Below are positions 20,711-39,183 of a stretch of DNA of 64,000 nt, piece after piece. The notes under the pieces were generated by a model. That model made no database searches. It saw only the letters and a program-made list of their open reading frames with translations, and had not been told where the DNA came from. This DNA comes from Sulfurovum sp. (lineage in GTDB: Bacteria > Campylobacterota > Campylobacteria > Campylobacterales > Sulfurovaceae): contig JALWTA010000010.1 in NCBI GenBank assembly GCA_027082955.1, positions 9,712-73,711 on the forward strand, written 5' to 3'. Position numbers and translations under genes: made by a program. Numbering within the stretch: the first letter of the stretch is position 1; each line of letters begins with the position of its first letter.

Positions 20711-21916
20711 TTAGAGCGGCAGTCGGCTGAGATATGCTTCAAAGCCTCTAAAGGAACCTGATATAGAAGCTTTTCCTCCCTGCTCTTCCAATTCATACTG
20801 TATGGCAATGAGTGTGACCTCCCAGTCTTCCGGATTGAGTCCGAAGTTCTGCCCAGCAACTTCAGGCGGAGGGTTGTCCTGAAGAGCAGCGAGGACTGCA
20901 CGAATATTTTGGTAAGCGATATTAACACGGTAAAAGTCATTCCATTGCCCATCATCGGCAGTTGACTTGTTTGGTGTGTTCGTTACTTCCTGGATCGAAC
21001 GTGATTTTGGCGATTTGGTACACCACCACGAATCATCTTTGGCAACTGTTGCGACATGGACGATACCGGTAGTAGGGTCAAATCGGATACCGGCACGCTC
21101 TTCCTGCCATGCCGAACCGTACGCATAGATGCCGATTACAAAATTCAAATGTTTATTGATCTTTGGGTTGTACAGGAAAACATTAAATGAAACCCCACCA
21201 CCGATATTGGATTCGTAATTGTGGTAGATAGGCAGGTCGAAACTGCCTTGAAGCATCAGGTTGCCCGTACCGTCACTTTTCCATGGCATAATGTGGGTAC
21301 TAGGACGTATCTGGTAGGTGAATGTGCTGCCGATACCTGAGTAGGTCAATGCCTGTTCCGGGGCATCATAAAGGTTGAGGGTGGTGCCTGCTGCAAGTGC
21401 ACCATTAACACATTTGGATTCGCCTACCACGCCACTTGGGTCTATTTGCGAAAAATCACTGCCTATGATAGTATTGCGGTTACCGGTTCTGGCATCGATA
21501 CCGGTCAGTACGGAGTGGTTGGCAAAATGTGTACCATCACCGTTATAGAGATAGCGTGAAACAGGATTGGTATAGCGGAAATCCCAAAATGGTTTGAGTA
21601 CTTCTGAAAAAGGATAGGAATAGAGATTGGCTGTGGCAGAGAAATACCGACCTGCTGCCTCTGTTTGTGTCATAAAGTGGACAAACCCGACATCAGCATT
21701 GCTACTGCACTGGGAAGTGATAATAGGTGTTTTGTCGGCTTCATTTTGCTGGAAGGTTACAGTAAAAGGACGCGAACCTCTTGTATCGGCAGTACCTTTG
21801 TACTCTTCATATTTGTGTTTTACACGTTCAAGTTCTTTTTTGGCTTTATCGATAAGCTGGCATCCGGAGAAGATGAGAAGAAAAGGGAAAAGCAATAGAA
21901 TGATTCTGTGTTTCAT
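20711..21916 (-). CDS. Lipoprotein of unknown function
   Basis: 401 aa. The signal peptide has the lipobox LIFSGC. The mature part looks beta-rich and carries no motif I recognise. It is embedded between two glycan genes in the same operon-like run. Confidence 0.5.
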   Translation of the reverse strand: MKHRIILLLFPFLLIFSGCQLIDKAKKELERVKHKYEEYKGTADTRGSRPFTVTFQQNEADKTPIITSQCSSNADVGFVHFMTQTEAAGRYFSATANLYSYPFSEVLKPFWDFRYTNPVSRYLYNGDGTHFANHSVLTGIDARTGNRNTIIGSDFSQIDPSGVVGESKCVNGALAAGTTLNLYDAPEQALTYSGIGSTFTYQIRPSTHIMPWKSDGTGNLMLQGSFDLPIYHNYESNIGGGVSFNVFLYNPKINKHLNFVIGIYAYGSAWQEERAGIRFDPTTGIVHVATVAKDDSWWCTKSPKSRSIQEVTNTPNKSTADDGQWNDFYRVNIAYQNIRAVLAALQDNPPPEVAGQNFGLNPEDWEVTLIAIQYELEEQGGKASISGSFRGFEAYLSRLPL

Positions 21917-23031: not shown

Positions 23032-26000
23032 ACGACAGTATTGTCCTGTTGTGCTTTTGTGACCGTTCTCAGCACAGCATCTGCCGAAACTTCATCGATA
23101 ATATATCCTTTGTCATACATCTTTACCCGTTCGGCAGGGGCACCAAGGTCAAAGACCATAAGCGGAAGTTCCATCTGCATGATCTCTTCTGCTGTGTAGG
23201 AGAAGGTCTCCGGCCAGATTGACGGAATAAAGAAAAGATCGACGTGGTAATGCTGTATGATCTCAGGAAGTATATTTCGTTGGTATTTTCCTGTTAAACT
23301 GTAATGCGGACTTTCTATCGGTTCTGTGATTTCACCAATGACTACTACGTTAATATTGAGATCTTCCGCATCGATACGTGAGACCAAATCTTTAACCATT
23401 GCAGCCCCTTTGGCGTAGTTGATCGCTCCAAGAACACCAACTGTAAAAGGCGCATCTTTCTCTTTTGGTGGAAGTGAAAGAGGTGTCATATCCGTGACTT
23501 TGTGCGGCAATACTTCAATATTGGCACTTTCAAGACCAGGGTATGCTTTTAGCAAGATCTCTTTTGAGCTCTGGCTAAAGCAGAGAATAGAGCTGCTAAG
23601 ATGCAGTAGACGGTCCCAGAGCAGACGCCATGTATCAATATCGGCAGGCTCCGGATGATAAGTTTTCCATTCAAGCCGATTGCGTCCCATGCAGTCACGA
23701 CATGTCTGGATATCAGGGATATCACAATATGTGCCGGTATCATTGAGGAGTGTATAGCTTGGGCAGACTGCATAGAAATCATGCAAAGGTATGATGAGGT
23801 CAATATTACGACGATTGATAAAGTGTTCAAGGTATTCCAGTATCTCTTTACTGTTTGTATAGGAGACAAGACTGTTTAGAAATACCGTATCGACACGTAG
23901 TTGCTCCAAAAGTATCTCTACGCCATTAAGTGTATCGATGGAGAAGAGGGATTCGTATGATTTGTATCGATGATGGATCGAGAACTTGTTTGTATAGAAA
24001 TCAAATCTGATCATAAGGGTATTTTCCCCTTCTGCATGTTTGTTCTCTACCAGAGCATCTGCATAATGATTCGCACCTCCTCCAAGAGCATGATCGAACA
24101 TGATCCACATCGGTTTTTTCAGGGAAGATGCAGTAAGTACCAACAGTTTCCGAAGTGTATGATGCGGATCTTGCTGAATATAACGTTGTACTTGTTTGTC
24201 ATAATCAGGATGGCGGGTAAGGAGTTTGCTGTAATTTTCTTCCAGAAGCTTCTGTTTAAGCACCGAAGGGAAAGATCCGCCATGTTTGTGATATACAAAG
24301 AGGTTAGGTACGAGTATGTTGGTATAGCCGTGTTCTATCGCGCGTTGGCACCAGTCATTCTCCTCTCCGTAACCTTTTCCGAATGTTTCGATATCGAAAA
24401 ATCCTATTTCCTGAACAACATCATAATTGACGCCCATACAGAAACCGACCCCTGTCGGCAGATGTGCATAATAGGGTATGGGATTGATTTTTTGGAACAT
24501 ACTGTCAAGCTGTGTAACGGACAATGCTTCAAAAATGGGGTTATCTTCAAGGAATTTCGGGAAACTTGCGATAGTACCGGAGTTTGTAAACGGAGTGGTC
24601 GAAGCGACCTTTGGCATGTGAAAAACAGGATACATCAGACGTTCAAGCCAGAAAGGTGGCAGTTCTGTATCGGTATTGAGAATAACGAAATGACCCTCTG
24701 CTTTTTCTACGGCACGATTGACACTGCGTACGAAACCAAGGTTCTCTTCATTATCAAGTAGTGTAGCATGGTCGAATTCTGAAAGTCTTCTTTGTAAGTA
24801 AGGCAGTACACGTTCATCAGGGCTGGCATCATTGACTACAATCAATCTATACGGATGGGATGTGTTTTCTTTGAGGGTGTTGAAGAGAATCTCAAGAAAA
24901 TCATATCCATTATAGACAGGTATAATAATATTGATCCTTGTATGTTCAGGCAAAGCATACTGCTTGGGGTCGAAAGAGATGAAATCACGCTTTGGATCAA
25001 TAGAGAGTGCATTGCCCGACTGACGAAGATTGGTTTGCATCTTTTCTTTTAGCTTTTCCCACATATAACGGAACTCTCCGCGTTTAAGATAGTAGAAAAG
25101 TTTTCTTGCCGCAGCCGGGTTGGCTTTGAAGAGTGAAGCTGCTGTTGAGAATTTCTCTGCCGCAGAAGGTTTCGGCAGGGCAGGGGTCTCTTTGCCGAGT
25201 TTGGTACGTACATGTTTTATAACTTCGGATGGAAGATTTTTAAGACGGTTTTTCAGGCGCATTGATTCTGCAAGTGTTTCCATCTCTTTGGCATACTGCT
25301 TCAGTGCCTGCATCTCATCGATCAGTTCATTGACCTTTTCAAAGATATCCTGCCCTGCATATTGCTGGGAAAGTACCAGCGATGCAGTCTCTTCAGTCAG
25401 TGATACAGGTAGTGCAGCATAGTCAGCAGGGCTGGGTGCAATATACATGCCCTGTTGTTGCACAAGGATACCCAAAAAACGTTCGATCGCATGTGCAACG
25501 GTATGATCTTTTTGTCCACGCTCCTCTTCAAAATCAAGTTCACCGTTTTGAAAGAGTGTCAGCAATGGTGCGAGAAGTTTACTGCGTGTCCAGAACATTG
25601 TGCCACCGGCAAATGTATAGTCTGCAGAAAAAGGTATGTTCGCTGCTTCACACAGCTGTTTGATCTTTGTATTGTTCCCGTAGGCATAACGTTGTGAATC
25701 AAGAATGGTATGTCTGCCCGTGATCTGCCCGATATTAGGATCTTCTGCAAAAAGATTCATTGTTTTCGTTACAGTCTCCGGCGAACCAATCAGATCAAAA
25801 TAGAGCATTTTTCGCCAAACACTGCCAAGCGGGCTTTCACCCGTTTTTTTAGTATGTAGTTTGCATAGATAAGTATAGGTATCGATACCGATATGGTTCA
25901 TAACAAGCAGGAAAGGCAATACATCTCTTCCGCGATTTTCGACTGTGTAGAGGGTTGCTTGCGGGCATGCCTGCAGGATGCGCATGGCATCCGATTCATC

Positions 26001-26201
26001 AATGTGCTTTGGTAGTGTAACATAGAGATCATACGGCATATCCAGAGCAGATAGGTAGCGGTATATCTCTTCCCATATGTCAGGATAGAAAAGGTGGATG
26101 ATAATAGCAGTTCTGGCATGTGTGCCACGGATAGGTTCCGGCTCTTTCCTGAAAATGCGGTCGGATGCAAAAACGATTTGTTCAAAAAGATAGGATTTCA
26201 T
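23028..26201 (-). CDS. Three-domain glycosyltransferase: RgpF-like (rhamnan synthesis F) N-domain, coiled-coil/Pro-Lys linker, GT2 domain, GT-B (GT4-like) C-domain
   Basis: 1,057 aa. Residues about 30-255 are RgpF-like (IIHLFYPDIW, VENRGRDVLPF, KLHTKK). Residues about 283-395 are heptad-rich and contain SMRLKNRLK. Residues about 422-650 form a GT2 domain (INIIIPVYNG, VVNDASPD, NTDTE). Residues about 695-1050 are GT-B-like. Confidence 0.7.
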   Translation of the reverse strand: MKSYLFEQIVFASDRIFRKEPEPIRGTHARTAIIIHLFYPDIWEEIYRYLSALDMPYDLYVTLPKHIDESDAMRILQACPQATLYTVENRGRDVLPFLLVMNHIGIDTYTYLCKLHTKKTGESPLGSVWRKMLYFDLIGSPETVTKTMNLFAEDPNIGQITGRHTILDSQRYAYGNNTKIKQLCEAANIPFSADYTFAGGTMFWTRSKLLAPLLTLFQNGELDFEEERGQKDHTVAHAIERFLGILVQQQGMYIAPSPADYAALPVSLTEETASLVLSQQYAGQDIFEKVNELIDEMQALKQYAKEMETLAESMRLKNRLKNLPSEVIKHVRTKLGKETPALPKPSAAEKFSTAASLFKANPAAARKLFYYLKRGEFRYMWEKLKEKMQTNLRQSGNALSIDPKRDFISFDPKQYALPEHTRINIIIPVYNGYDFLEILFNTLKENTSHPYRLIVVNDASPDERVLPYLQRRLSEFDHATLLDNEENLGFVRSVNRAVEKAEGHFVILNTDTELPPFWLERLMYPVFHMPKVASTTPFTNSGTIASFPKFLEDNPIFEALSVTQLDSMFQKINPIPYYAHLPTGVGFCMGVNYDVVQEIGFFDIETFGKGYGEENDWCQRAIEHGYTNILVPNLFVYHKHGGSFPSVLKQKLLEENYSKLLTRHPDYDKQVQRYIQQDPHHTLRKLLVLTASSLKKPMWIMFDHALGGGANHYADALVENKHAEGENTLMIRFDFYTNKFSIHHRYKSYESLFSIDTLNGVEILLEQLRVDTVFLNSLVSYTNSKEILEYLEHFINRRNIDLIIPLHDFYAVCPSYTLLNDTGTYCDIPDIQTCRDCMGRNRLEWKTYHPEPADIDTWRLLWDRLLHLSSSILCFSQSSKEILLKAYPGLESANIEVLPHKVTDMTPLSLPPKEKDAPFTVGVLGAINYAKGAAMVKDLVSRIDAEDLNINVVVIGEITEPIESPHYSLTGKYQRNILPEIIQHYHVDLFFIPSIWPETFSYTAEEIMQMELPLMVFDLGAPAERVKMYDKGYIIDEVSADAVLRTVTKAQQDNTVV

Positions 26202-26242
26202 GGATATCGCCTTGTGATATGTACATTACGACAGACATATGC

Positions 26243-27568
26243 CTACTGCGCACCGATTTGAAAATATTCAAAGCCCATATCCTGCATATGTGCCTTGTCA
26301 AACTGGTTACGCCCATCGAAGAAGATAGGTGTATTGAGCCGTTTTTTCATTTCATCAAAATCCGGGCTTCTAAACTCCTGCCACTCGGTAATCAGGATTA
26401 GAGCGTCAGCACCATTGAGTGCATCGTATTTGTTATCGGCATAATCGACATGGGTGTTTCCCTTCAGATAGAAACTTTCTGCTTCATGGCGGGCTTTTGG
26501 GTCATAGGCGACAATATGTGCGCCACGGGAGGTAAGCTCATTGATAATAGTGATGGATGAAGCCTCTCTCATATCATCGGTTTCTGGTTTGAATGCCAAT
26601 CCCCATACGGCAAATGTTTTACCTGAAAGATCATCTCCGAAACGTCTGATGACTTTGTCACTGATGACTTTTTTTTGTGCATAGTTGACCGCTTCGACCG
26701 CATCGAGAATACGCGGTGTATAGCCAACGTCTTTAGCGGTTTTTGCCAATGCCTGCACATCTTTGGGGAAACAGCTTCCGCCATAACCGCAGCCGGGGTA
26801 GATAAAGCTGTAGCCGATGCGGCTGTCCGATCCGATGCCGTTTCGGACTTTGTTGACATCGGCACCGACACGCTCACAGATATTGGCAATCTCATTCATA
26901 AAGGAGATTTTGGTGGCCAACATGGCATTGGCGGCATATTTTGTCATTTCTGCACTCTTGACATCCATACCGATAAAGCGGTCTCTGGTTTTCATAAAAG
27001 GTGCGTAAAGATCGTGCATGATCTTCATGGCACGTTCACTGTCTGCACCTACCACTACACGGTCAGGGTGCATGAAATCCTGAATAGCTGCGCCTTCTTT
27101 TAGGAATTCCGGGTTGCTGACCACATCGAAATCGATCGATACACCACGTTTGTCCAATTCTGCCTGAATGGTTGCTTTTACTTTGTCGGCTGTACCTACC
27201 GGAACAGTGGACTTGTCGACCACCACCATATAGTGCTGCATATGTTCTCCAATGCTTTTGGCAACAGCAAGAACATATTGTAGATCGGCACTGCCGTCTT
27301 CGCCCATCGGCGTGCCCACCGCAATGAAACTGATGGCGGTATTTGCAATGGCATCGGCAATATCGGTAGTGAAGTGCAGTGTCCCCTTCGCATGGTTTTC
27401 CAAGACCATTTTCTCCAGCCCGGGTTCATAAATTGGGATTTTCCCTTGTCTGAGTGCATCGATTTTGTCTGCATCGATATCCACACAGGTGACGGTATTG
27501 CCCATTTGGGCGAAACAGGTACCGCTTACAAGTCCGACATAGCCTGTTCCAATGACCGATATTTTCAT
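26243..27568 (-). CDS. ugd: UDP-glucose 6-dehydrogenase
   Basis: 441 aa. It has [16 protein letters not shown], the catalytic GGSCFPKD and a typical length for the family. Confidence 0.9.
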
Positions 27569-28482
27569 GTTTCCAATCCTTTTATATTTGTTTTGACTGC
27601 TAATGTCGAGAGATACATCATGATATCAACAATAATATTGACAAGCCGTATCAGCAGCACGGAGAAGACGATCACTTCGGATGCAATGTTGACATGCAAA
27701 AATGATGCAACAGCAATGAACGCTCCTTCCCTTACGCCCAGTCCCCCTGAAGCTCCCGGTGTAACAAAGCCGATGAGCCAGCTGATGATATAGATGCTCA
27801 TGCTCTCAAAAAAAAGCCCGGCAGTCATATTTGGATGTTGTACGGTAACGACAATCCCCATCATAACTCCCTGCAGCATCACCGACATGGAGAGCATCAG
27901 ATTCATCCTGATTTTTGCAGCAAACGGGAAAGAGGGATAGGTATAGTACACAACAATGGCTGTAATCATACACGATACACCCATCAAAGTCAAGATATAG
28001 AGCGGTATCGTAGTTGAAAAAAAGGCAAACAGTGTACTGGAAAAGAGTGTCGCCGCTATCAGTAGAAATGCGAAGAAGACTGAAATTTTTGCCATGGCTT
28101 TTTGAGTGATACCGATGCTGGAGGCTAGGGCCTGTCTTCCTACAAAATGGAAGAGGTTGCCGGGAAGGTATTTGGCTATCTCCGTCTTTGCAAAGTAGTA
28201 GTAGGATGTTTTGTACGAAAACGCGGCTGCCGCATAGTTAAGCAGCATGATATGCCAAGCGTAGATACCAAGCAGGGTCGAGATGATGTTGACAACAAAA
28301 AGTACGGGGAGGATAGGCAAAATCTGGGTAAAGTGTGCAGCAAAGGTTTCAAGTGTATAGTGCTGAAAGAGGGTATAGAAGACGAAAAACAGTCCGGCAG
28401 CACCCAGAAGTTTCCCCGCAGCAGAAAGTACCTGTTTATTGTGCATGCGGTACCTTCTGGATGTTCTTTTGAAGGGGGGCAA
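27565..28482 (-). CDS. UPF0104 / lysyl-phosphatidylglycerol-synthase TM-region (MprF flippase-domain-like) membrane protein
   Basis: 305 aa, about 8 TM helices. Family signature [14 protein letters not shown] near the C-terminus. The start is uncertain, with an alternative ATG at 28446. Confidence 0.65.
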
Positions 28483-29524
28483 AAATACGTGTTGCCATTA
28501 TGTTTCTTGCGCAGGCATTGCTGAGTTTTTGATCGTAGGATATGAGCGCATTGGCACCGACCTGCGTAAGCAGCGCCGGATTTTGTTTGATCTCAACGAT
28601 ACGTGCTGCCAGTGTTTCAGGATGATTGTCTTTAGTAAAAAAGATATCTTCGTTGTCTGTAAAAGCTTCCTGCATAGCATCTGTTTTCAGTGTCAGGTGC
28701 GGTTTCCCGACACGGAATGCATCGTTCGTTTTATTGAGTACCACACTGTTGGCACGTTCACCGACGCTGAAGAGCCCAAGGTTGATATCGGTAGCATTGT
28801 AGTAGTAGTTGAGATCTTCAAGGCTCATGAAGCCTTTGAACTCAATGTTGCGCAGTCCGTATGACTCTGCAAGCGTCTGGCATTTCTCCAGATCCGGTCC
28901 TTTGCCTATCATAAGGAAAAAGGTATCGTCCCCTTGCTCCTGAAGGATACGTGCCGCTTCGATGATGACTTCTGTCCCGTGCAGAGGGATGTAGCTGCCG
29001 ACATAAAGTACGGTAAACTGCGGTTTGTAGCGTTCTGTTTGTAGTGGTTTGACATTCTCTTCATTGATCGTCAGCGGTACTCTGACAAATTTCTCTTTGG
29101 GAATATTGTAGTTTTGAGAGAGTGTTTCGATAAGTTTATGGGTATCGACAATAATATAGTCGGCAAGCTGAAGTGATTTTTGTTCGATCCAGTAGGTAAG
29201 TTTGCCAAGCAGGCTGTCAGGTTTGTAGATTTTTCTGTCATTGCACATCATGTCGTAGATGGAGAGGTAAAAGTCAAATACAATGGGTTTTTTGGTAAAC
29301 AAACGTAGATAAAGTACGAGAAAATGACCCATATAACTGACAAAAAAGAAATCTTGTCCAATCATCTTGAACGGAAGGCGAACAAGAATACTTGGAATCC
29401 TGGAGGCATAACTTTTCCCTTTGGAGACGCACTCACTATAGTCAAAATAGTTCTGGAGCGTTTCTCTGTGAAACTTGTTACGGGAGATGGTCGGTTTGTC
29501 AGAACAGGTAAAGAGTGCTTTCAT
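28436..29524 (-). CDS. GT4-family (GT-B) glycosyltransferase
   Basis: 362 aa. The C-terminal half has a typical glycos_transf_1 layout (VGSYIPLHG...KG...NxGLF...ND). It abuts the downstream GT2 gene. Confidence 0.6.
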   Translation of the reverse strand: MKALFTCSDKPTISRNKFHRETLQNYFDYSECVSKGKSYASRIPSILVRLPFKMIGQDFFFVSYMGHFLVLYLRLFTKKPIVFDFYLSIYDMMCNDRKIYKPDSLLGKLTYWIEQKSLQLADYIIVDTHKLIETLSQNYNIPKEKFVRVPLTINEENVKPLQTERYKPQFTVLYVGSYIPLHGTEVIIEAARILQEQGDDTFFLMIGKGPDLEKCQTLAESYGLRNIEFKGFMSLEDLNYYYNATDINLGLFSVGERANSVVLNKTNDAFRVGKPHLTLKTDAMQEAFTDNEDIFFTKDNHPETLAARIVEIKQNPALLTQVGANALISYDQKLSNACARNIMATRIFAPLQKNIQKVPHAQ

Positions 29525-30481
29525 CTATTTGCCGATTTGCTCCAGATCACGTTTTATCTGTTCGACACGAAGCTCTTCAAGCAGTTTTCGGTTGACAGAG
29601 AGCAGGTCTGCTATAAAGGCGATCAGCCCTGTCTGAAAGCCCATTCCCATCAGTACACCGGCAAGAATGACCGACTGTATATGTCCTGCACCGTCCCCGG
29701 TAAAATAGAAGTATAGGTAGCGCAGTCCCAGCAGCAGTCCCAGGCCAAAAAGAACTGCAGCTATGCTCATAAAGAACTGGAATGACTTGTACACCACAGA
29801 GATACGTACAATGGTCACAACTGATTTTTTGATGTAGTTGGGAATGCTTGAAAGCAGTCTGGAGGGTCTGAGGTCTTCATTGGTGCGGATGGGAACTGAG
29901 GTGATCGCCATGTTCTTCTGACCCGCCTGAATGATGGTTTCCAGCGTATAGGTGTAGTTGTTGTAGACATTGAGCTGCATGGCACACTCGCGGCTCATTG
30001 CCCGAAACCCGCTTGGCGCATCAGGAATGTCAGTACGGCTGGCTTTTCGAACCACCCATGAACCGAGTTTTTGCAGAAATTTTTTGGCTGGGGAGAAGTG
30101 TTCTGTTTTGTCAATAGGACGTGCGCCTATGACATATTCTGCCTTATGCTCTAAAATCGGTTTGACGAGTTTAGGGATGTCCTTTGCCTCATACTGGTTG
30201 TCTGCATCGGTGTTGACTATGACATCAGCACCTTGCCTGAGACACTCTTTGATACCAGCCATAAAGCCCTTGGCAAGCCCTTGGTTGTGTTTGAAGTCAA
30301 CAATGTGGTCGACACCGCACTCTTTCGCTACCTTTACGGTGTCATCGGTACTGCCGTCATTGATAATGAGCCATTCGACGGTATCAAATCCCTCAACCTC
30401 TCTTGGCAGTGCTCCCAGTGCGATGGCAAGGGTTTCGGCTTCATTATAGCAGGGTATCTGGATGATGAGTTTCATGAACAA
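29525..30481 (-). CDS. GT2 polyprenyl-phosphate glycosyltransferase (DPM1/RgtE-like) with C-terminal TM helices
   Basis: 318 aa. Motifs IQIPCYNEAETL, IINDGSTDDT, TDADNQY and PSGFRA, plus two C-terminal TM helices. Confidence 0.8.
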   Translation of the reverse strand: MFMKLIIQIPCYNEAETLAIALGALPREVEGFDTVEWLIINDGSTDDTVKVAKECGVDHIVDFKHNQGLAKGFMAGIKECLRQGADVIVNTDADNQYEAKDIPKLVKPILEHKAEYVIGARPIDKTEHFSPAKKFLQKLGSWVVRKASRTDIPDAPSGFRAMSRECAMQLNVYNNYTYTLETIIQAGQKNMAITSVPIRTNEDLRPSRLLSSIPNYIKKSVVTIVRISVVYKSFQFFMSIAAVLFGLGLLLGLRYLYFYFTGDGAGHIQSVILAGVLMGMGFQTGLIAFIADLLSVNRKLLEELRVEQIKRDLEQIGK

Positions 30482-30486
30482 GGCTC

Positions 30487-32334
30487 CTATCGGTAGTATT
30501 GCAAAAAGTAAAAGAAATCAGAATAGATCGCCTGAATACAGATCAGTATAACGGCACCTGTAAAGAGAAAGCTCTTTTGAAAACGTTCCGCAAAAATAGA
30601 TGCCATTATAGCAAAACCAAACATAAAGGGCAATAAGTAGCGCGGCTGAAGACCGCCAAGGTAGCCGCTGTGCAGATGGGCTCTGTAAGAGAAAAGGTAC
30701 TGAATCACCAGCACGGCAAAGAGTGAAAGCAAAACGATCTTTCCAAGCAGGCAGTAGCTGTGCTGTTTCTCTGTTCTGGCGCACGGCATAAAGAGTGCGG
30801 CAAGGGCAAAGAGATGAAGGAACAGCAGACCACTGTAGCCTACCCAGCTTTCTTTTGTAAAGGAGTGGTGGGAGTGGATGCCGAACCAGCCTCCCTCAAT
30901 ATAGTGCAGCATACGTTCACCCCATTGCAGAGGACTCAAATGCTGTCTAAACTGTTCAGGTACGAAAAAAGGAGAATCCAGATACTGTTTGGGATGGGTC
31001 ACATTGAACGTCGGTACGAGTGTATGGTAATGAAGCGTAATGGCAAGTTGATAGTAGACAACAGGGACAAGTACGAATGCAAAGAGTAAAATGTGCCATC
31101 GGTTGAGCATAGGCTTTTGCCGTGTTGCGAGCAGATAGGCAAGATAAAAGAGCAGGGCGAAGAAGATGAGTATGGCAGCTGTCAGTTTGCTGAAATAGGC
31201 GACCAGTATGCCCAAGGCAAGGAGCAGGTAGGTAGCGGCAGTGTACCGCTTTTCCAAAAGCCGCACGAATCCAAAGGCGAAGACGGCAGCACCGAGAATG
31301 GCAAGGGTGTCGTTTGAGATGCTTGCTCCGATATAGGCATACATCGGCACTGAAGTAAGCAGAGAGAGAAAGACAAAATCCCCAAGTATGCCCAGTTCAG
31401 CACGGAAGCCTATCGCAACTATAAGCACAAACGCCAGCAGAAAGAGCATCATACTGAGTGTTCGAAAGTTGTCAACATTCTCTCTTGGCGAAAGGTGGTC
31501 GTCATAGGCAAGGTTCATCAGCTCATAATAGAACGGAGGGTGGCTGAGATAGTTGCCACGGTGTTTGTTGTTGAGCATCACCATATGTTCGTAGTCCGGT
31601 ATGAAGTGGTGGTGTTCGTGTACCGAGACAATGTAGGAAAGGTGTGCCAGTTCGTCAGGCGGATAGCTGAAGCGCACATGCTCTTTGTAGTAGAGTGTCT
31701 TGAAAAGGGTCAGTGACAAAAAGAGCGCATAAAGGATGAGTTTTGCTGTAGGTACAGGTTCATGGCGATAGTGCATATAGAGGTGTACGGTAAAGGCAAG
31801 AAGCAGATAGAGCAGTGCTGCTTCCATTAAAAGTGTGATATGTGTTTCGGTCATGACTGCAACGGTGTTCGCATGCAGGTTCATAGCAAGATGGGGGTCT
31901 GCACCTGTTGTGTTGAATGAAACCTCTTTGCTGTTACGTGTAAAGTGTGTGACCTGTGCATCTGGTGCAAGTGATGTCAGAGGAACCGTACTGTAGAGAG
32001 TATGAAACCACTTTCTCTGTACAAGTGCGATATGGGTAATGTGTACAGTGGTTTTACGCATAGCAGGGTCAAAACGTATATGCGCAAGATATTGTGCTTT
32101 GGGCAGTACAAATGCGTAGCGGTTATTCTCGACATGAACAGGTTTCACAGAATGCTGTTCACTATAAGGCTGATGCATTTTGGCATAATAGATCTGCGGA
32201 TGAAGCGGATGGCTGTCAGAGCTGTACATCTGAATAGTCAGTGTCGTTGTATTGTGCCAATAGAGCAGCAGAGCAAAGAGTATGCCAATGCCAATGATCG
32301 GGAAAAACAGGTATCGGATTAATGTTTTAGACAT
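30487..32334 (-). CDS. GT-C fold glycosyltransferase (ArnT/PMT_2-like) with an N-terminal inserted beta-rich module
   Basis: 615 aa, more than 10 TM helices. An acidic loop motif YPPDELAHLSY sits after the early TM helices, as in the ArnT/PMT families. Residues about 30-106 resemble the shared module. It lies immediately downstream of a polyprenyl-P GT2 gene. Confidence 0.6.
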   Translation of the reverse strand: MSKTLIRYLFFPIIGIGILFALLLYWHNTTTLTIQMYSSDSHPLHPQIYYAKMHQPYSEQHSVKPVHVENNRYAFVLPKAQYLAHIRFDPAMRKTTVHITHIALVQRKWFHTLYSTVPLTSLAPDAQVTHFTRNSKEVSFNTTGADPHLAMNLHANTVAVMTETHITLLMEAALLYLLLAFTVHLYMHYRHEPVPTAKLILYALFLSLTLFKTLYYKEHVRFSYPPDELAHLSYIVSVHEHHHFIPDYEHMVMLNNKHRGNYLSHPPFYYELMNLAYDDHLSPRENVDNFRTLSMMLFLLAFVLIVAIGFRAELGILGDFVFLSLLTSVPMYAYIGASISNDTLAILGAAVFAFGFVRLLEKRYTAATYLLLALGILVAYFSKLTAAILIFFALLFYLAYLLATRQKPMLNRWHILLFAFVLVPVVYYQLAITLHYHTLVPTFNVTHPKQYLDSPFFVPEQFRQHLSPLQWGERMLHYIEGGWFGIHSHHSFTKESWVGYSGLLFLHLFALAALFMPCARTEKQHSYCLLGKIVLLSLFAVLVIQYLFSYRAHLHSGYLGGLQPRYLLPFMFGFAIMASIFAERFQKSFLFTGAVILICIQAIYSDFFYFLQYYR

Positions 32335-32431
32335 GGAAGAAAACTTTCATTTGTAAAAGTCCAACTTGAATGATGCGCTCATAACACTTCTTTATTGATC
32401 CGCTTTAGTCGGACCGCTCTTTTTGAATGCT

Positions 32432-32437
32432 ATTATA
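32432..32437 (-). promoter_or_regulatory. Candidate -10 box (TATAAT on the minus strand) in the 188-nt gap upstream of the GT-C gene
   Basis: Plus-strand attata equals minus-strand TATAAT, about 95 nt upstream of the ATG at 32334. It sits in the largest non-coding gap of the window. Confidence 0.25.
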
Positions 32438-32522
32438 CTCACTATTGCATGAAGTTCCATTGAGCTGCAAGCTTGAAGTAGAAACATAAAATCAGAGCTT
32501 TTTATCCAGTAGTGTTTTAGCA

Positions 32523-34211
32523 TTACCGAAAGAGAAAGGATCGTATCATGTTTTTTATACGGGAAGGGATCAGCCGTTTTATCCCTTTTGAAGCCTCTGT
32601 GCCCGATAACGGTTTGGTGGATGAATGGGCGCGAAGTACCAGTATCCAGTCTTCATAGGTAGGAAGCGGTGGGATATCCCATACGCCATTTCCATTGGCA
32701 GTTACCATTCCGATCTGTTCTTGTTGTCCTGTACGGGGATCCCAAAAATATGCTTCATAGGCAACATAGGATTCAAGTGCAAGCAGACGGTAGCGCTGTG
32801 ACCACGGATAGACTGGACCGTAGAAGTAGACAATACGCAATACCTCATCTATACCGGAGATATGCGGTGTTTCACGCTCTGAATGACTGCCTGTCGTATC
32901 GATCCAGTCGGGTCTGGGCTGCATCTGTTCCCATGGCAGTGTTTCAAGAAAGGTTTTGGCAAGTCCAAGCTGCCGAGAGCCCGGCAGATTCATTGCCTCC
33001 TGCCAAGGGGTATTCCCCCAGCATCCGCCATGCGGCGAGGGACCGAAAGGTGTTTTGGGTGTATTGACCTGCCAAATGCCGTTGGCACCATAGGTAAATC
33101 CGGCTGCACCGCCAAGAAGCGTGCTCCAGAAAGCAAACCGCTGCATCTCCGCCCCTGTATCGTGGATGATCCCCTCATAGTTTATTTCACCCATGACAAC
33201 GGGCATGTGGGGGGTTCTTTGTACTGCCTGATGCAACAGCTTGCTACCCCAGAAGATACTTTTATATCCGTTGTGCCCCGCCTGAAGCAGTTCAAAGTCA
33301 AGCAGTTCGGGCTGGGTGATCTGGTCACGTCCCACCTCGGTAGGATGAATAGTGATCAGTCGTTTGAAAGGGTCCCGTTCACGGATGAAATGTACGATCT
33401 CTGTCCAGCCTTTGATCTGTTTTGCTTTGTCCTGTTCAGGTGTTTCGCTGAGGTAGTAGGGCATAGCAGCCTCGCCTGCTGCACACCAGACAACAGGGTA
33501 GGCTCCCCAGCGGGCGATGAGGTACTCCCAGTGCCGGCGCATGTTTTCATTGCCCATTTTAAGCAGGTAGTATCCCCATGCACCGACGATGCAGGGGGTT
33601 AATCCTTCAGAGACAAGGTGGGCAATGCGCATATCTGCTTCATCGAAAAAGGCAGGGTTGATACGGCTAAATCCCTCTTCCCAGACAAACCCGCTTTGGT
33701 TGGCAGCACGTGCATCGAAAGCATCCATATCGGGGTAAAGTCCAGCTACAATGAGGATGACATTGAAGCCTTTCTCTTTTCTGTCCTGTGCCAGCGTATG
33801 AAACTCCTCAGGGTAGCGCAGCCGCTCACTCAGACCCATCCACCAGGTATCCCCAAGCCAGAGAAAAGGATCGCCATTATCATACTGAAGTATGTTTTTA
33901 TCTGAACTGATTGTAAGCACTTTGTGTGTGCCTGTCTCGGAGGGTTCGATATGCAGTGTATGTGTGATGTCATGGAGTGAGGTATTGTCTTTGTCAGAAC
34001 ATTGGCTGCGTACGTTATAGACCCCTGGCGCTGGTGCACTAAACCTGACACTCCACCGCTCTTTGCCTCTCCAGAATGCAGGCACTTTCCATGTCTGTTT
34101 GTCATTACTGATAATGATGTCAAGTCTTACATGGTTGAAGGGATCGGCATAGGATATGTCGGAGAGGTAGTCCCATTCAGCAATTTGTCCGGTATAGGCA
34201 GTGATTGTCAT
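32523..34211 (-). CDS. DUF5060 + DUF4038 (GH140-like TIM-barrel) putative glycoside hydrolase
   Basis: 562 aa. An Ig-like N-domain is followed by PFLWLGDTWW, which is characteristic of DUF4038/GH140 proteins. SD AAGGAG lies before ATG 34211. I see no signal peptide. Confidence 0.6.
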   Translation of the reverse strand: MTITAYTGQIAEWDYLSDISYADPFNHVRLDIIISNDKQTWKVPAFWRGKERWSVRFSAPAPGVYNVRSQCSDKDNTSLHDITHTLHIEPSETGTHKVLTISSDKNILQYDNGDPFLWLGDTWWMGLSERLRYPEEFHTLAQDRKEKGFNVILIVAGLYPDMDAFDARAANQSGFVWEEGFSRINPAFFDEADMRIAHLVSEGLTPCIVGAWGYYLLKMGNENMRRHWEYLIARWGAYPVVWCAAGEAAMPYYLSETPEQDKAKQIKGWTEIVHFIRERDPFKRLITIHPTEVGRDQITQPELLDFELLQAGHNGYKSIFWGSKLLHQAVQRTPHMPVVMGEINYEGIIHDTGAEMQRFAFWSTLLGGAAGFTYGANGIWQVNTPKTPFGPSPHGGCWGNTPWQEAMNLPGSRQLGLAKTFLETLPWEQMQPRPDWIDTTGSHSERETPHISGIDEVLRIVYFYGPVYPWSQRYRLLALESYVAYEAYFWDPRTGQQEQIGMVTANGNGVWDIPPLPTYEDWILVLRAHSSTKPLSGTEASKGIKRLIPSRIKNMIRSFLFR

Positions 34212-34321: not shown

Positions 34322-37057
34322 TCATGACAGTTTAGGACGTAAGCTAAAATCTTCTCTGTCATGATTTAGGTTTGGATTATAGTATGGATCACCGTTCTCT
34401 AAAATATGATTATGTCTGGCATAAAGTGCATCTTTTTCTGTCTGGAAACGTGCGATTTTCTCCGGTGTTGTCTCGTATCCTCTCGAGACAGACTCATGGT
34501 GGTACATCTGTGCATAAGGTGTGAAAAGATTATAGTACCCTTCTTCCAGAACACGCAGACAGAAGTCTACATCATTATAGGCAACTTTGAAATTGACCTC
34601 ATCCATGCCTCCTACTTCCTGATAGATGCGTTTTTTGATCATCAAACAGGCAGCGGTTACAGCACTGACATCTTGTATGACATTAAGACGGTTGAAATAA
34701 CCAGGGTTTTCCCGAGGGTAATGTTTGTGCGAATGACCTGCATATCCACCAAGACCGATGATGATCCCTGCATGCTGGATGGTGTCGTCAGGATAGTAGA
34801 GTTTCGCCCCTACACATCCTATCTCTTTTCTTTGAGAATGTTCGAGCATCGCCTCGATCCAATCAGGGCTGATGACCTCTATGTCATTGTTCAAAAGCAG
34901 TACATGCTCACCTTTTGCATAGGTTTCAACAGCATGATTGTTGATCTGTGCATAGTTGAACGGTACATTGTACTCGTAAAATTTCACCCTTTCATCTTTG
35001 CTTTCCAATTTTGTCATGCATGCAAATGTTGACTCCTCTTCTGAATTGTTGCTGATACCGATGATCTCGTAGTTCGCATAGGTCGATTTTTCCAGAATGG
35101 AGTCGATGCACATCTCAAGCAGTTCGGGTTTGTCTTTGAATGGAATGATGATGCTGACAAGGGGATGGTTTTGAATAGTGTAACGCACTCGGAAATAGTG
35201 GTGTATGTTGCCGTACTCAACCTTGCCGTCAATTTCTCTGCGCTTTAGAGTCTCTTCCAGCAGCAGTCTTCCGCGTTCCAGCGCTTCCGGTTTTGCTCCA
35301 CTGTTGAGGCTGGTGGAGTTCTCCAGCATTCTCCAGTGGTACAGTACTTTGGGAATATGACGAATGTTGTCTGCCTTTTCAGTCAGTCTCAAAAAGAGTT
35401 CATAATCCTGTGCGCCGTCATAGGCAGGATTGAAGTGACCTACCTCATCAAGGAGTGTACGTTTGAAGCAGCTAAGATGAGTAATGTAGTTGTGGGAAAG
35501 CAGCAGATCAGGGGAAAAGTCCGGTTTGAAGTGAGGGTTGATATAATCCCCCTCCGGAGAGATAAAGTCTTCATCACTGTAAATGAAGTCGGCTCCTGTT
35601 TCATTGATGCACTTGACCACCTCATAAAGTGCATCCGGCGTAATTTCGTCATCATTGTCCATCAAAACGATGTACTCACCTTCTGCAGACTGAAGTGCCG
35701 CGTTTGAAGCCCCTGAAATATTAAGATTCTCCTGTAAACGGGTGATTTTTATTTTGGGATTGGAGAGAGCATCAAGATAGGCAATGGTTGCTTCGTTTGT
35801 GCTTTTATCATCTGCAATGCAAAGTTCCCAATTGTTATACCATTGTGCTTCTACGGACTTTAGTGCTTTATCAAGCCATTTGGGATCGACATTGTAAACA
35901 GGCATTACCAAAGAGATCAATGGCTGTTTTTTAAATGATTTTATCTCTTCATCTATTTCTGTGGTCTGTTCAGGTATTTCATAACGATATACGTAAGGGG
36001 CAGTACTCTCCTTTTCTGAAGGTTTTTGGGGTGGAGTTGGTATCTTTATTTTATTTTTTGAAAAAGGATTGAGCTTTTGCAACAGTTGTTTCAATCGGTT
36101 TTTTAAGCGCATAGAGTCAAGTATTTGATCTTTGTATGCGATCACTTCTCTGGCATAACTGAGTTCCTCTCCTATATTGTTAAGCTTTTTGTTAATGTCA
36201 CTTAGTTCTCCCATCATCTCTGTCAGTCTTTGATGAAGCTCTTTGATCTCTTCATCTTTGTTCTGTAATTGGGTATGCGCTTTTTTTATCTCTTCAGTTT
36301 TACTATTGATCAATTGCTGTCTATTGTACAACGCTTCAAAAAGTACACGGATGTTGTCCAGATAGAGTTTCTTATGGTTATGGAATATCTGCTGATAGGT
36401 ATCTATTACCGCATTATCATTAGACTGCAATTTTATAGTACGCGATGTTTTTTTGATACGGTAGCTAAAGAGGATTTCAGGAATCTGATAGACCTCTCTT
36501 CCTAACTCAATAAGAGAAAGCCAAAAATCATAATCTTCATTTCCCTGCCGCATATTTTCACGGTATCCACCTACCTCTTCCCAGTCATTTTTTCTGTACA
36601 TCCCCGTTGCAAAGATCATATTGGCGGCGAGTATTTGAGGGAACGCATAAGGTGGAAGCTCCCATTTCCCCTGTTTCTCTCCAAAGAGTTCCGCTTCACA
36701 GTAGACAATACCTATTTTCTCATTGGTATCCAGTATTGTTTTAGCCTTTTCGAGGTAGGTTGGGGCAATCTTGTCATCTGCATCAAGAGGAAGTATATAT
36801 TCCCCTAGTGCGTTTTCAATTCCTTTGTTTCTTGCAACAGAAGGGCCTGAATTTTTTTGAAGGTAGATAATTTTATAACCTTTTGTTTCAAGCTCTTTTA
36901 GCACAGTAAGGCTTTTGGGATCATTTGAAGCATCATCGATAATAATTGTTTCAAAATTTTTAAATGTCTGGTTTTCTAAAGAGGCTATCGTTTCAAGCAG
37001 ATACTCACCATCATTATAAGTAGGGATAACCACACTTAACTTTATTGTGTTTTGCAT
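34322..37057 (-). CDS. Triple-GT2 glycosyltransferase with an internal coiled coil (ABC-pathway O-antigen/glycan polymerising enzyme type)
   Basis: 911 aa. GT2-1 spans residues 6-215 (VVIPTYND, IIDDASND, LDADD). The coiled coil spans about 235-330 and ends in SMRLKNRLK plus a P/K linker. GT2-2 spans 380-580 (LVMPVYNV, IADDKS, MDNDD). GT2-3 spans 633-860 (IIIPFKDK, LLNNDIEV). Confidence 0.75.
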   Translation of the reverse strand: MQNTIKLSVVIPTYNDGEYLLETIASLENQTFKNFETIIIDDASNDPKSLTVLKELETKGYKIIYLQKNSGPSVARNKGIENALGEYILPLDADDKIAPTYLEKAKTILDTNEKIGIVYCEAELFGEKQGKWELPPYAFPQILAANMIFATGMYRKNDWEEVGGYRENMRQGNEDYDFWLSLIELGREVYQIPEILFSYRIKKTSRTIKLQSNDNAVIDTYQQIFHNHKKLYLDNIRVLFEALYNRQQLINSKTEEIKKAHTQLQNKDEEIKELHQRLTEMMGELSDINKKLNNIGEELSYAREVIAYKDQILDSMRLKNRLKQLLQKLNPFSKNKIKIPTPPQKPSEKESTAPYVYRYEIPEQTTEIDEEIKSFKKQPLISLVMPVYNVDPKWLDKALKSVEAQWYNNWELCIADDKSTNEATIAYLDALSNPKIKITRLQENLNISGASNAALQSAEGEYIVLMDNDDEITPDALYEVVKCINETGADFIYSDEDFISPEGDYINPHFKPDFSPDLLLSHNYITHLSCFKRTLLDEVGHFNPAYDGAQDYELFLRLTEKADNIRHIPKVLYHWRMLENSTSLNSGAKPEALERGRLLLEETLKRREIDGKVEYGNIHHYFRVRYTIQNHPLVSIIIPFKDKPELLEMCIDSILEKSTYANYEIIGISNNSEEESTFACMTKLESKDERVKFYEYNVPFNYAQINNHAVETYAKGEHVLLLNNDIEVISPDWIEAMLEHSQRKEIGCVGAKLYYPDDTIQHAGIIIGLGGYAGHSHKHYPRENPGYFNRLNVIQDVSAVTAACLMIKKRIYQEVGGMDEVNFKVAYNDVDFCLRVLEEGYYNLFTPYAQMYHHESVSRGYETTPEKIARFQTEKDALYARHNHILENGDPYYNPNLNHDREDFSLRPKLS

Positions 37058-38392: not shown

Positions 38393-39183
38393 TAAAGTAC
38401 ATCCGAAAAATGAGGTCGTAGACGTTTAAATGTTTTCATACCTAGTAGGAAGACGATTATTGTAACGGACCAATAATAGAGTGTCATTTCACCTTTTTGC
38501 CAAAACCATTGGTGATAAATCATGCTATCCCTATATCCTTCAATGAGATAAACCATAGGATTGAGTTTGATAATCCAGTGGTATTTTTCCGGTATCATGT
38601 GAATCGACCAAAAGATAGGAGTGAGCCAAAAACCAAATTGTATCAGCATTGCTATGATCTGCCCCATATCTCTAAAAAATACTACTACAGACGAAGTAAT
38701 CCATGAAAGCCCTAGCAGTAAAACAATCATCGCAAACAGATAGTAAAAAACCTGTAACCAGTAGATATTTGGCATATACCCATAATAAAGAAACATACCG
38801 AACATAAAAAGAATAAAAAAAAGATGCACTATCAAAGAGGAAAAAATCGGAATGATTGGAAGTAAACTCACGCGGAATACGATCTTTTTTACAAGATAGC
38901 TATTGGCAATAATCGCATTTGTCGCATTTGTGAGTGCATCGGCAAAGAAAAACCAAGGCAGTATTCCGGTGATCAGCCATAAAATGAAAGGAAAGTTATC
39001 AACAGGTCTCGATTTGAAACCAACTTGAAAAACGAACCAAAAAATCAAAATAGTAGCCAATGGTTGGATAAATGCCCAGAGAATTCCTAAAAAATTTCCT
39101 ACATATTTCTGTTTTATATCATTTTTGATTAATGACCATAAAAGACGCCTATTCTCTGTAATAGAGATGAAATAACTATACAC
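38392..39183 (-). CDS. wzm: Polysaccharide ABC transporter permease (ABC-2 type)
   Basis: 263 aa, 6 TM helices. N-terminus LIKNDIKQKYVGNFLGILWAFIQP is typical of Wzm/KpsM/TagG. Confidence 0.85.
   Translation of the reverse strand: MYSYFISITENRRLLWSLIKNDIKQKYVGNFLGILWAFIQPLATILIFWFVFQVGFKSRPVDNFPFILWLITGILPWFFFADALTNATNAIIANSYLVKKIVFRVSLLPIIPIFSSLIVHLFFILFMFGMFLYYGYMPNIYWLQVFYYLFAMIVLLLGLSWITSSVVVFFRDMGQIIAMLIQFGFWLTPIFWSIHMIPEKYHWIIKLNPMVYLIEGYRDSMIYHQWFWQKGEMTLYYWSVTIIVFLLGMKTFKRLRPHFSDVL

Follow-up and report, generated by a model that had tools for sequence, protein, structure and literature searches.

How would a lipid-linked sugar cross the membrane where a run of glycosylation genes includes none of the usual flippase genes? 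Translocation of polyprenyl-phosphate-linked sugars is the least understood step of extracytoplasmic glycosylation, and the candidates GtrA, ArnE/F and MATE/Wzx rest mostly on genetic context. The question is raised here by a run of five genes on the minus strand (positions 26243-32334) of a 64,000-nt stretch of Sulfurovum sp. DNA, referred to as the window, from an assembly of 2.10 Mb in 48 contigs that is 95.6% complete. The run encodes a predicted polyprenyl-phosphate sugar synthase of glycosyltransferase family 2 (GT2) and a membrane glycosyltransferase of predicted GT-C fold together with a UPF0104-like membrane protein. We favour, as on balance probable, a three-component extracytoplasmic glycosylation system in which the UPF0104-like protein serves as the translocase; the lipid product, the flipping step, the acceptor and the sugar are the parts of this reading that we infer. 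The five genes, with open reading frame (ORF) coordinates that we checked and the source of each assignment in brackets, are the following.

30487-32334, minus strand: membrane glycosyltransferase of the GT-C fold, 615 aa (predicted structure)
29525-30475 (ORF to 30481), minus strand: DPM1/GtrB/ArnC-like GT2, 316 aa, with two C-terminal transmembrane (TM) helices (Pfam, NCBIfam)
28436-29524, minus strand: soluble glycosyltransferase of family 4 (GT4), 362 aa (Pfam PF00534)
27565-28446 (ORF 27565-28482, 305 aa), minus strand: UPF0104-like membrane protein of the MprF flippase fold, 293 aa, about 8 TM helices (predicted structure)
26243-27568, minus strand: ugd, UDP-glucose 6-dehydrogenase of the TuaD type, 441 aa (Pfam, NCBIfam)

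The five ORFs abut in this order, with a gap of 11 nt between the GT-C and GT2 genes and of 0 nt between GT2 and GT4, an 11-nt overlap of GT4 with the UPF0104-like gene and a 4-nt overlap of the latter with ugd. Within 26243-32334 we find no GtrA, Wzx/MATE, SMR or ArnE/F gene, and the gaps are too small to hide one. The slot of the usual flippase is filled by the UPF0104-like gene, which makes the run a variant of the three-component system. A scan of 25900-32800 for consensus promoters and terminators gave the same result as shuffled sequence and placed no boundary within the run. An initial annotation of the window had named these five gene products, and all five identities are borne out, those of Ugd, GT4 and GT2 by Pfam and NCBIfam and those of the GT-C and UPF0104-like proteins by structure and intermediate sequences. 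Its statement that no GtrA or ArnE/F gene is present is correct inside the run, with the caveat that a real gtrA lies 10 kb off at 17569-17952.

Predicted folds and family assignments

The GGLGVRE motif on which the UPF0104 assignment had been based is present, at residues 246-252 in the numbering of the 305-aa ORF and 234-240 in that of the called 293-aa protein. This protein has no Pfam or NCBIfam match, even at an E-value of 10, and fails the LPG_synthase_TM model PF03706, a point that tells against the reading we favour; a PF03706 search of the whole genome from which the window comes gives zero matches. PF03706 is matched by six of 36 orthologues (best E-value 8e-7), and two orthologues carry a precomputed PF03706 assignment. 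Among 33 distant relatives, fetched with an orthologue profile at about 1e-22 to 1e-30, 20 match the model, the best at 2.7e-12. A jackhmmer search from a canonical PF03706 protein (of L100, one of the loci compared below), run on a small local ORF set only, never reached the clade of the window protein, and a profile of the UPF0104-like homologues matched no PDB sequence. The 293-aa protein is a divergent relative, or branch, of UPF0104 and not a model-defined PF03706 member.

With an AlphaFold2 model of the 293-aa protein (pLDDT 83), the top six Foldseek matches are all MprF, at query-normalised TM-scores of 0.62-0.65 against less than 0.25 for the others. A comparison with the MprF flippase domain had been proposed in the initial annotation, and it proved favourable: in VIA-align the model superimposes on MprF residues ~41-340 with Z-scores of 17.3-20.0 over 247-264 residues (root-mean-square deviation 3.4-3.8 Å), the next best match having a Z-score of 6.1. 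By this model the protein adopts the fold seen in the translocation domain of MprF. We regard the UPF0104/MprF assignment as confirmed because of the predicted structure and the intermediate sequences, despite the Pfam and NCBIfam miss. The two most conserved motifs of the protein, [11 protein letters not shown] and [12 protein letters not shown], both coincide with stretches modelled at low confidence (residues 90-99 and 230-234) and would correspond to the paired hairpin motif of MprF (PMC11980842). In vitro, MprF of Pseudomonas aeruginosa is a promiscuous, energy-independent lipid scramblase that moves a reporter of about 3 kDa too (PMC11980842), so that a bulky or tailored head group is no obstacle in principle. 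On the strength of the modelled fold the UPF0104-like protein, a putative scramblase, is a natural candidate for translocating the lipid-linked sugar. Genes of the MprF and YbhN types are absent from the genome (95.6% complete), and no second UPF0104-like gene is found there.

The 615-aa protein also has no Pfam or NCBIfam match, even at an E-value of 10, and matches neither PF13231 nor PF09913. Among 107 of its homologues, precomputed Pfam assignments to PF13231 (PMT_2) and to PF09913 (DUF2142) occur in six each, and a profile of the homologues gave chance-level matches only against PDB sequences (E-values of at least 0.12). The AlphaFold2 model (pLDDT 90.5) comprises an N-terminal TM helix, a periplasmic β-sandwich (residues ~29-162) and a GT-C core (~190-615). 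Foldseek ranks Pmt4, Emb, ArnT and ALG9/12 at the top, and VIA-align of residues 190-615 gives Z-scores of 25.0 for ALG12, 23.6 for Pmt4 and 22.4 for ArnT; AglB and STT3 align too. According to the model the protein is of the GT-C fold, without an assigned GT-C family. The PPDELAH motif noted in the initial annotation is found at residues 225-231, in the first periplasmic loop of the core, and its acidic residues hold up on alignment: across 34 homologues Asp227, His231, Asp342, Lys383 and Arg565 are invariant and Glu228 is kept in at least 90%. Judged from the helix order of the model, Asp227 and Glu228 come after the first TM helix of the core (193-219) and are periplasmic. Their position would be that of the DE motif of PMT enzymes, a correspondence derived from the offset between the starts of the alignment ranges and from the Pmt2 numbering.

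Used as a query, the β-sandwich (31840-32256, residues 27-165) has weak tblastn matches in the window at 14010-14168, 17391-17543 and 20927-21127 (E-values 0.1-0.9), of which one falls in a 401-aa lipoprotein and two at the C-termini of other envelope proteins. At L033:544-996 the same domain is found once more, as a fragment on its own (38% identity, 2e-30).

Of the possible GT2 starts, the ATG at 30475 is conserved and gives MKLIIQIPC, as in those aligned orthologues that include the start; the TTG at 30481 is not. The protein matches PF00535 (5e-22) and, in NCBIfam, AglJ best (1e-26), followed by PpgS (1.4e-18) and ArnC (2e-8). The closest solved structures are all polyprenyl-phosphate glycosyltransferases, i.e. 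Pyrococcus DPMS (5mlz, 7.5e-11), ArnC (1e-5) and GtrB (1.8e-4). Its DAD motif is invariant among orthologues, and the two C-terminal TM helices are as in the polyprenyl-phosphate glycosyltransferase group. Campylobacterota counterparts are 84-96% identical to the GT2, and counterparts from Clostridia and Actinomycetota 50-61%. We predict that the GT2 is a polyprenyl-phosphate sugar synthase.

The GT4 matches PF00534 (7.7e-18) and has no equivalog match, the best NCBIfam hit being the WcaI family (1.6e-10). Ugd matches PF03721 (5e-69), PF00984 (1.9e-40) and PF03720 (1.3e-33); it scores 469.5 bits against TIGR03026 (cut-off 189.8) and 553.6 bits (3.8e-166) against the TuaD equivalog, under the cut-off of 700. 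In a search of its own genome it is the only UDP-glucose dehydrogenase found, the single other paralogue being of the TviB type. The latter, a UDP-GlcNAc C-6 dehydrogenase at 57764-59020 on the minus strand (600.5 bits against a cut-off of 592), lies in the Wzx/Wzy part of the window and, going by its family, would supply a second uronic-acid route (UDP-GlcNAcA).

Linkage of the UPF0104-like gene to the GT2

Gene neighbourhoods were compared from two anchors. With the UPF0104-like protein as anchor, a scan in which each species was represented by a single genome gave 32 loci, and in every one with both sides visible a GT2 adjoins the UPF0104 gene or sits one gene off. The order in Campylobacterota is (Wzm-Wzt-triple-GT2)-GT-C-GT2-GT4-UPF0104-(ugd)-RgpF giant, the last being a multidomain RgpF-GT2-GT4 glycosyltransferase; identities to the window proteins are 84-96% for GT2, 65-80% for GT4, 45-63% for UPF0104 and 43-54% for GT-C. 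Wzm, Wzt and triple-GT2 are syntenic with the cassette in L011, L014, L015 and L033. Three metagenome-assembled genomes (MAGs) of Clostridia have UPF0104 followed by GT2 and no GT4 (GT2 59-61%, UPF0104 25-29% identical). In the Clostridia loci L035 and L037 a GT-C lies downstream and relatives of Wzm, Wzt and triple-GT2 upstream, and in L034 and L037 a Ugd stands beside the cassette. Two Actinomycetota loci have GT2 followed by UPF0104, again with no GT4 and with YfhO or PMT_2 proteins alongside. The window-type GT-C is swapped in seven loci for a YfhO/DUF7657/PTPS-related protein or for an unassigned protein of ~775 aa with 14 TM helices. Judged by gene order and sequence similarity, GT2 and UPF0104 are a cassette conserved across phyla, whichever gene comes first and even where other genes are inserted, and the GT-C (window type, YfhO/DUF7657/PTPS-related, PMT_2 or 14-TM) is its exchangeable specificity component.

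The reciprocal set was obtained by scanning metagenome contigs with a GT2 alignment, which gave at least 555 relatives, of which 80 loci (59-92% identity) were kept. A UPF0104-like gene lies within 3 kb of the GT2 in 10 of the 22 loci that have at least 3 kb on both flanks, a lower bound, since the model used can miss canonical PF03706 genes such as those of L099 and L100, which are counted here. When same-strand neighbours closer than 3 kb are clustered without prior expectation, UPF0104-like proteins form the top cluster (23 of the 80 loci), followed by methyltransferases (16), generic GT2 (8), GT4 (7), GDP-mannose 4,6-dehydratase (6) and Ugd (5-6). Since a genome typically has only few UPF0104 genes, we estimate, without a formal test, that a UPF0104 gene within about six genes of the GT2 in nearly half of cases is far above chance. 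The co-occurrence of UPF0104 with the GT2 and GT-C genes, proposed as a check in the initial annotation, is seen as GT2 adjacency from the UPF0104 side and as the commonest neighbour from the GT2 side. Together with the MprF fold, the linkage across phyla favours the three-component logic of that annotation, with UPF0104 as the candidate for a putative flipping step.

Other genes occur at the same place. In L114 a GtrA (PF04138, 1.2e-12) directly follows a GT2 of the same subfamily. In L075, which has no UPF0104, two tandem genes (5256-5941) for membrane proteins with 3-4 TM helices, 116 and 112 aa long, lie directly upstream of the GT2, a layout that recalls ArnE/ArnF. These loci suggest that other flippase types can fill the UPF0104 slot. 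Mutual exclusivity of GtrA and UPF0104 was considered and dropped, as the numbers are too small (two UPF0104-less loci with small TM candidates, seven without).

A large polytopic protein is found within 3 kb in 18 of the 22 fully flanked GT2 loci. Such proteins stand beside the GT2 at L020:5668-8001, L023:2819-5146, L024:5674-7983, L086:3460-5955, L115:3896-5944, L043:1147-2997 and L081:1834-4065. They are ~600-830 aa long with ~13-14 TM helices where counted, those scanned have no Pfam match, and they probably represent unclassified GT-C families.

Besides the missed family models, several observations weigh against a translocase. About half of the fully flanked GT2 loci have no UPF0104-like gene nearby and most of these have no other flippase candidate, so that a GT2/GT-C pair can work without a linked flippase gene. 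The gtrA 10 kb away in the window could serve both modules. A natural UPF0104-RgpF fusion (P0294, 628 aa; PF03706-like at 18-270, 3.3e-5; RgpF at 379-602, 1.7e-31) and the RgpF-GT2-GT4 giants that directly follow UPF0104 or ugd in 11 loci (L010, L011, L013, L015, L016, L017, L019, L025, L030, L031 and L033) allow a role tied to the polymerase. We know of in vitro scrambling only for P. aeruginosa MprF, and of none for a stand-alone UPF0104 protein or a polyprenyl-linked cargo. For HexF (PMC10128005) and GpgF (PMC12713373), the UPF0104 gene is dispensable for lipid synthesis and flipping is unverified.

The fusion, the giants, the loci without a linked flippase gene and the presence of gtrA would all fit a UPF0104-like protein that anchors or activates the GT2, as GacJ does for GacI, or the RgpF polymerase, or that recycles undecaprenyl phosphate (Und-P), with flipping by GtrA, by another protein or by none dedicated to it. 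DedA-family proteins recycle Und-P. Their predicted structures share the double inverted hairpin motif of MprF (PMC11980842). We nevertheless consider such a role unlikely. The protein keeps the whole 8-TM translocation domain of MprF, and both of the most conserved motifs are intact, which is more than an anchor needs, whereas known activator subunits are small, and across phyla the linkage of UPF0104 tracks GT2 and not RgpF. Recycling is moreover not exclusive of translocation, since a scramblase would do both, donor export and Und-P return.

Directly adjacent GT2 and UPF0104 genes are seen in 16 of the 54 loci in which both are visible. The gene between them is the Campylobacterota GT4 in 15 loci, an S-adenosylmethionine methyltransferase of ~200 aa in eight (L052, L053, L056, L067, L082, L083 and L108 among them), a polysaccharide pyruvyl transferase in L045, L046 and L118 (two with an FrhB-like protein), an AT3 acyltransferase in L087, and another GT4 plus a methyltransferase in L064. 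The slot resembles that in ArnC-ArnD-ArnE/F, GpgS-GpgD-GpgF and the gtrB-ydjC-gtrA genes of the window, each with a cytoplasmic enzyme that modifies the lipid-linked sugar before crossing. By this analogy the recurrence of a sugar-tailoring gene suggests that the lipid-linked sugar may be tailored prior to flipping; alternatively, the polymer may be the substrate of these enzymes. A predicted-complex run of the GT2 with the UPF0104-like protein scored 0.00 and makes no call either way.

The GT4, which the initial annotation listed correctly and left unexplained, occupies this slot. Its orthologues are confined to Campylobacterota loci and are missing even there in L013, L016, L017 and L030, where GT2 abuts UPF0104; from this distribution the GT4 appears as an accessory, clade-specific and optional component. 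Its substrate may be the lipid-linked sugar, which it would tailor prior to flipping, or the polymer.

Another way to explain the GT4 is to pair it with the UPF0104-like protein, as in GpgS/GpgF or HexS/HexF: the GT4 would make a membrane glycolipid, e.g. a glucuronosyl lipid made with UDP-glucuronic acid from the adjacent Ugd, which the UPF0104 protein would move to the outer leaflet, and GT2 and GT-C would form a separate decoration pair of two genes that borrows another flippase. The overlaps of the UPF0104-like gene with GT4 (11 nt) and ugd (4 nt) are in line with such a pair. There are published precedents for a GT4 or an enzyme of the monogalactosyldiacylglycerol synthase type with a stand-alone UPF0104 (PMC12713373, PMC10128005), the GT4 is weakly similar to monoglucosyl-diacylglycerol synthase in NCBIfam (3.6e-6), and 7 of the 80 other loci have a GT4 of a non-orthologous cluster no more than 3 kb from the GT2. 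However, UPF0104 still abuts GT2 in those four Campylobacterota loci from which the GT4 is absent, as it does without any GT4 in Clostridia and Actinomycetota, and methyl-, pyruvyl- and acyltransferases take the GT4 slot elsewhere. The five-gene run has no deacetylase, and ugd occurs with the cassette in the absence of GT4 (L013, L034 and L114). We give a glycolipid pair only a slim chance.

A more elaborate form of the translocase reading would make GT2-modifier-UPF0104 a cassette that tailors the donor and then flips it. Here the GT4, using UDP-glucuronic acid (UDP-GlcA) from Ugd, would extend the donor to a lipid-linked disaccharide on the cytoplasmic side, the scramblase would export it and the GT-C would transfer it in one step; in other loci the methyl-, pyruvyl- or acyltransferase would tailor the sugar. 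We hold this to be distinctly unlikely. If true, it would add UPF0104 as a fourth class to the bacterial flippases of monophosphate-linked donors and would show that these donors can be more than simple monosaccharides.

Sugar donor, genomic setting and proposed mechanism

Which sugar the system would carry is a separate question, for which ugd is the obvious lead. The gene follows the cassette in 7 of the 19 Campylobacterota loci (window included) whose downstream side is visible and is absent from the other 12. Two non-orthologous Ugd types, TuaD and E. coli PRK15057, abut the GT2 subfamily or the cassette in 13 fetched loci and the window, of 113 places, also where there is no GT4. The following belong to two sets that correspond to these two types, the window gene being of the TuaD type.

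L071:2439-3614: Ugd, first set
L091:209-1450: Ugd, first set
L114:7463-8632: Ugd, first set
L034:12034-13284: Ugd, first set
L037:15029-16267: Ugd, first set
L089:4673-5986: Ugd, second set (the other, non-orthologous type)
L092:2087-3406: Ugd, second set
window 26243-27568: Ugd, second set

In L071, L089, L091 and L092 Ugd is immediately adjacent to the GT2, and adjacency of this kind hints at a UDP-GlcA donor. In a Sulfurovum MAG (L014:10849-12170) the ugd after the cassette is split into overlapping ORFs of 207 and 233 aa, by a frameshift or an assembly error. ManC abuts the cassette in L020, and L024 holds an unscanned ORF of the same size.

The initial annotation had read the ugd linkage as a pointer to a uronic acid and had compared the module with the RgtE/RgtA-D system of Rhizobium. 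In such a system the GT2 would make a polyprenyl-phosphate-linked uronic acid, glucuronic or galacturonic, from the Ugd product and the GT-C would add the anionic residue to lipopolysaccharide. The recurrence of two Ugd types beside the GT2 or cassette, independent of GT4, and the fact that the module ugd encodes the only UDP-glucose dehydrogenase of the genome are what one would expect of it. Yet 12 of the 19 Campylobacterota loci lack the gene, and GDP-mannose 4,6-dehydratase (6 loci) and ManC (L020) abut the cassette about as often. No UDP-GlcA 4-epimerase, as needed for galacturonic acid, is found within the five-gene run, the rest of the genome not having been searched for one. The GT2, with best family matches to AglJ and PpgS, is 50-61% identical across phyla and often found without ugd, which suggests a donor such as UDP-Glc, UDP-GlcNAc or GDP-Man; as far as this conservation goes, it more probably uses a common donor. 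UDP-GlcA could as well feed the GT4 or the giant glycosyltransferases, and synteny, with Wzm/Wzt and two giant polymerase-type glycosyltransferases, points to an O-polysaccharide as acceptor and not to lipid A or core. The more specific Rhizobium analogy finds no support, and an Rgt-like system of this uronic-acid kind is in our view possible but rather doubtful. Ugd adjacency was dropped as a decisive sign of a uronic-acid donor, because GDP-mannose dehydratase and ManC hold equivalent positions and most loci have none of these; being facultative, ugd does not identify the sugar. A uronic-acid donor as such is to be taken as a tentative and somewhat improbable option, and Ugd could supply UDP-GlcA to the GT2, to the GT4 or to neighbouring polymerases.

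The features of the window that bear on the acceptor and on flippase supply are the following, with Pfam as the source for the first four.

38392-39183, minus strand: Wzm
37061-38392, minus strand: Wzt with a C-terminal glycan-binding domain
34322-37057, minus strand: triple-GT2 enzyme, 911 aa
23028-26201, minus strand: RgpF-GT2-GT4 multidomain glycosyltransferase, 1057 aa, directly downstream of the module
17569-19715: gtrB-ydjC-gtrA module
17569-17952: gtrA (PF04138, 1.3e-20), 10 kb from the five-gene run
48510-50045: MurJ/Wzx-type flippase

The run is embedded in a co-directional block of Wzm/Wzt, triple-GT2, an apiosidase-like glycoside hydrolase, the five genes, RgpF-GT2-GT4, an AT3 acyltransferase, further GT2s and gtrB-ydjC-gtrA. 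The five genes thus lie inside a long O-polysaccharide operon of the ABC-transporter (Wzm/Wzt) type, and the Wzm/Wzt and triple-GT2 machinery probably makes the acceptor polysaccharide. The second, GtrA-based module that the initial annotation had described is present as gtrB-ydjC-gtrA, and the genome can be annotated with one ABC-type O-polysaccharide and two independent periplasmic decoration modules. Of 151 sampled genomes of the order, only two have a close orthologue of the UPF0104-like gene, and the two other genomes sampled from the genus both lack one; a patchy occurrence of this kind is typical for serotype-variable surface-glycan genes.

In the three-component system that we favour, the GT2, on the cytoplasmic side of the membrane, would charge polyprenyl (undecaprenyl) phosphate with a sugar taken from a nucleotide sugar. 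The UPF0104-like protein would pass the lipid-linked sugar to the periplasmic leaflet, most likely by scrambling that needs no energy source; production of the donor on the inner side and its use on the outer side would drive the net flux, and free Und-P would return by the same scramblase. The GT-C would then transfer the sugar to the polysaccharide exported by Wzm/Wzt, probably via Asp227 and Glu228, its N-terminal β-sandwich probably holding the polymer. If the flipping step is true, the cargo range of MprF/UPF0104 proteins would extend from glycerophospholipids to isoprenoid carriers and thousands of 'hypothetical' proteins would gain a function. A conserved, widespread GT2 subfamily that has an MprF-type protein as its commonest neighbour and alternatives in the same place is in addition a clean test bed for flippases.

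Comparison with known systems

The module shares with Gtr-type systems (GtrB, GtrA, Gtr*), CsbB/GtcA/YfhO, GacI/J/K/L, ArnC/ArnE-F/ArnT and the pentofuranose system of C. youngae with its MATE protein the combination of a DPM1-like GT2 and a GT-C with an acidic first periplasmic loop. Like the Gtr type, with gtrAB and gtr*, it combines a conserved pair of synthase and translocase with an exchangeable GT-C, and it is placed in a polysaccharide locus, here of the ABC-transporter type as for streptococcal rhamnan side chains. It differs in that the translocase slot is taken by an 8-TM protein of the UPF0104/MprF fold, a soluble GT4 is inserted between synthase and translocase, and the GT-C carries an N-terminal TM helix and a β-sandwich before its core. 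Reviews of the bacterial systems name only translocases of the GtrA, Wzx/MATE and SMR types (PMC8035078, PMC11127046), and our text search of a library of papers found none joining an MprF-like protein with GT-C/polyprenyl-sugar systems.

With MprF the window protein has in common the fold of the N-terminal translocation domain and the GxGxRE-type motif of PF03706. In contrast to MprF it has no synthase domain and no further TM helices, identity is 11-12%, and its presumed cargo is a polyprenyl-phosphate sugar and not a glycerophospholipid. GpgSDF of P. aeruginosa and HexSDF of C. difficile are alike in having a stand-alone UPF0104 beside a glycosyltransferase (a GT4 in Gpg) and a cytoplasmic modifying enzyme in the operon, but they glycosylate phosphatidylglycerol or diradylglycerol, have a deacetylase and lack both GT-C and DPM1-like GT2, whereas linkage in the family of the window protein follows GT2 and the GT4 can be missing from a locus. 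RgtE/RgtA-D of Rhizobium resembles the module in the DPM1-like GT2, the ArnT-like GT-C and the need for a Ugd product; the module differs by the missing epimerase, the O-polysaccharide context and the facultative ugd link.

The closest counterpart is archaeal. Makarova, Galperin and Koonin predicted in 2015 that UPF0104 is a flippase family of glycosylation, on neighbourhoods of UPF0104 with an AglD-like GT2 and PMT/STT3-like proteins, AglD being a natural GT2-UPF0104 fusion (PMC5898192). COG0392 (arCOG00899) is named 'predicted membrane flippase AglD2/YbhN', and the PplT preprint describes UPF0104 fusions to GT-A and GT-B domains (bioRxiv 10.1101/2022.03.11.483950). The same three families with the same predicted role are found in the window, whose GT2 has AglJ as its best NCBIfam match. 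The archaeal case involves dolichol phosphate and N-glycosylation of S-layer proteins and flagellins, whereas here the setting is bacterial, in Wzm/Wzt polysaccharide loci and with separate genes; both are predictions. The flippase idea is therefore not new, having been published in 2015 for archaea. Added here are the reciprocal linkage anchored on GT2, the swappable GT-C, the substitution by GtrA and the recurrent modifier slot.

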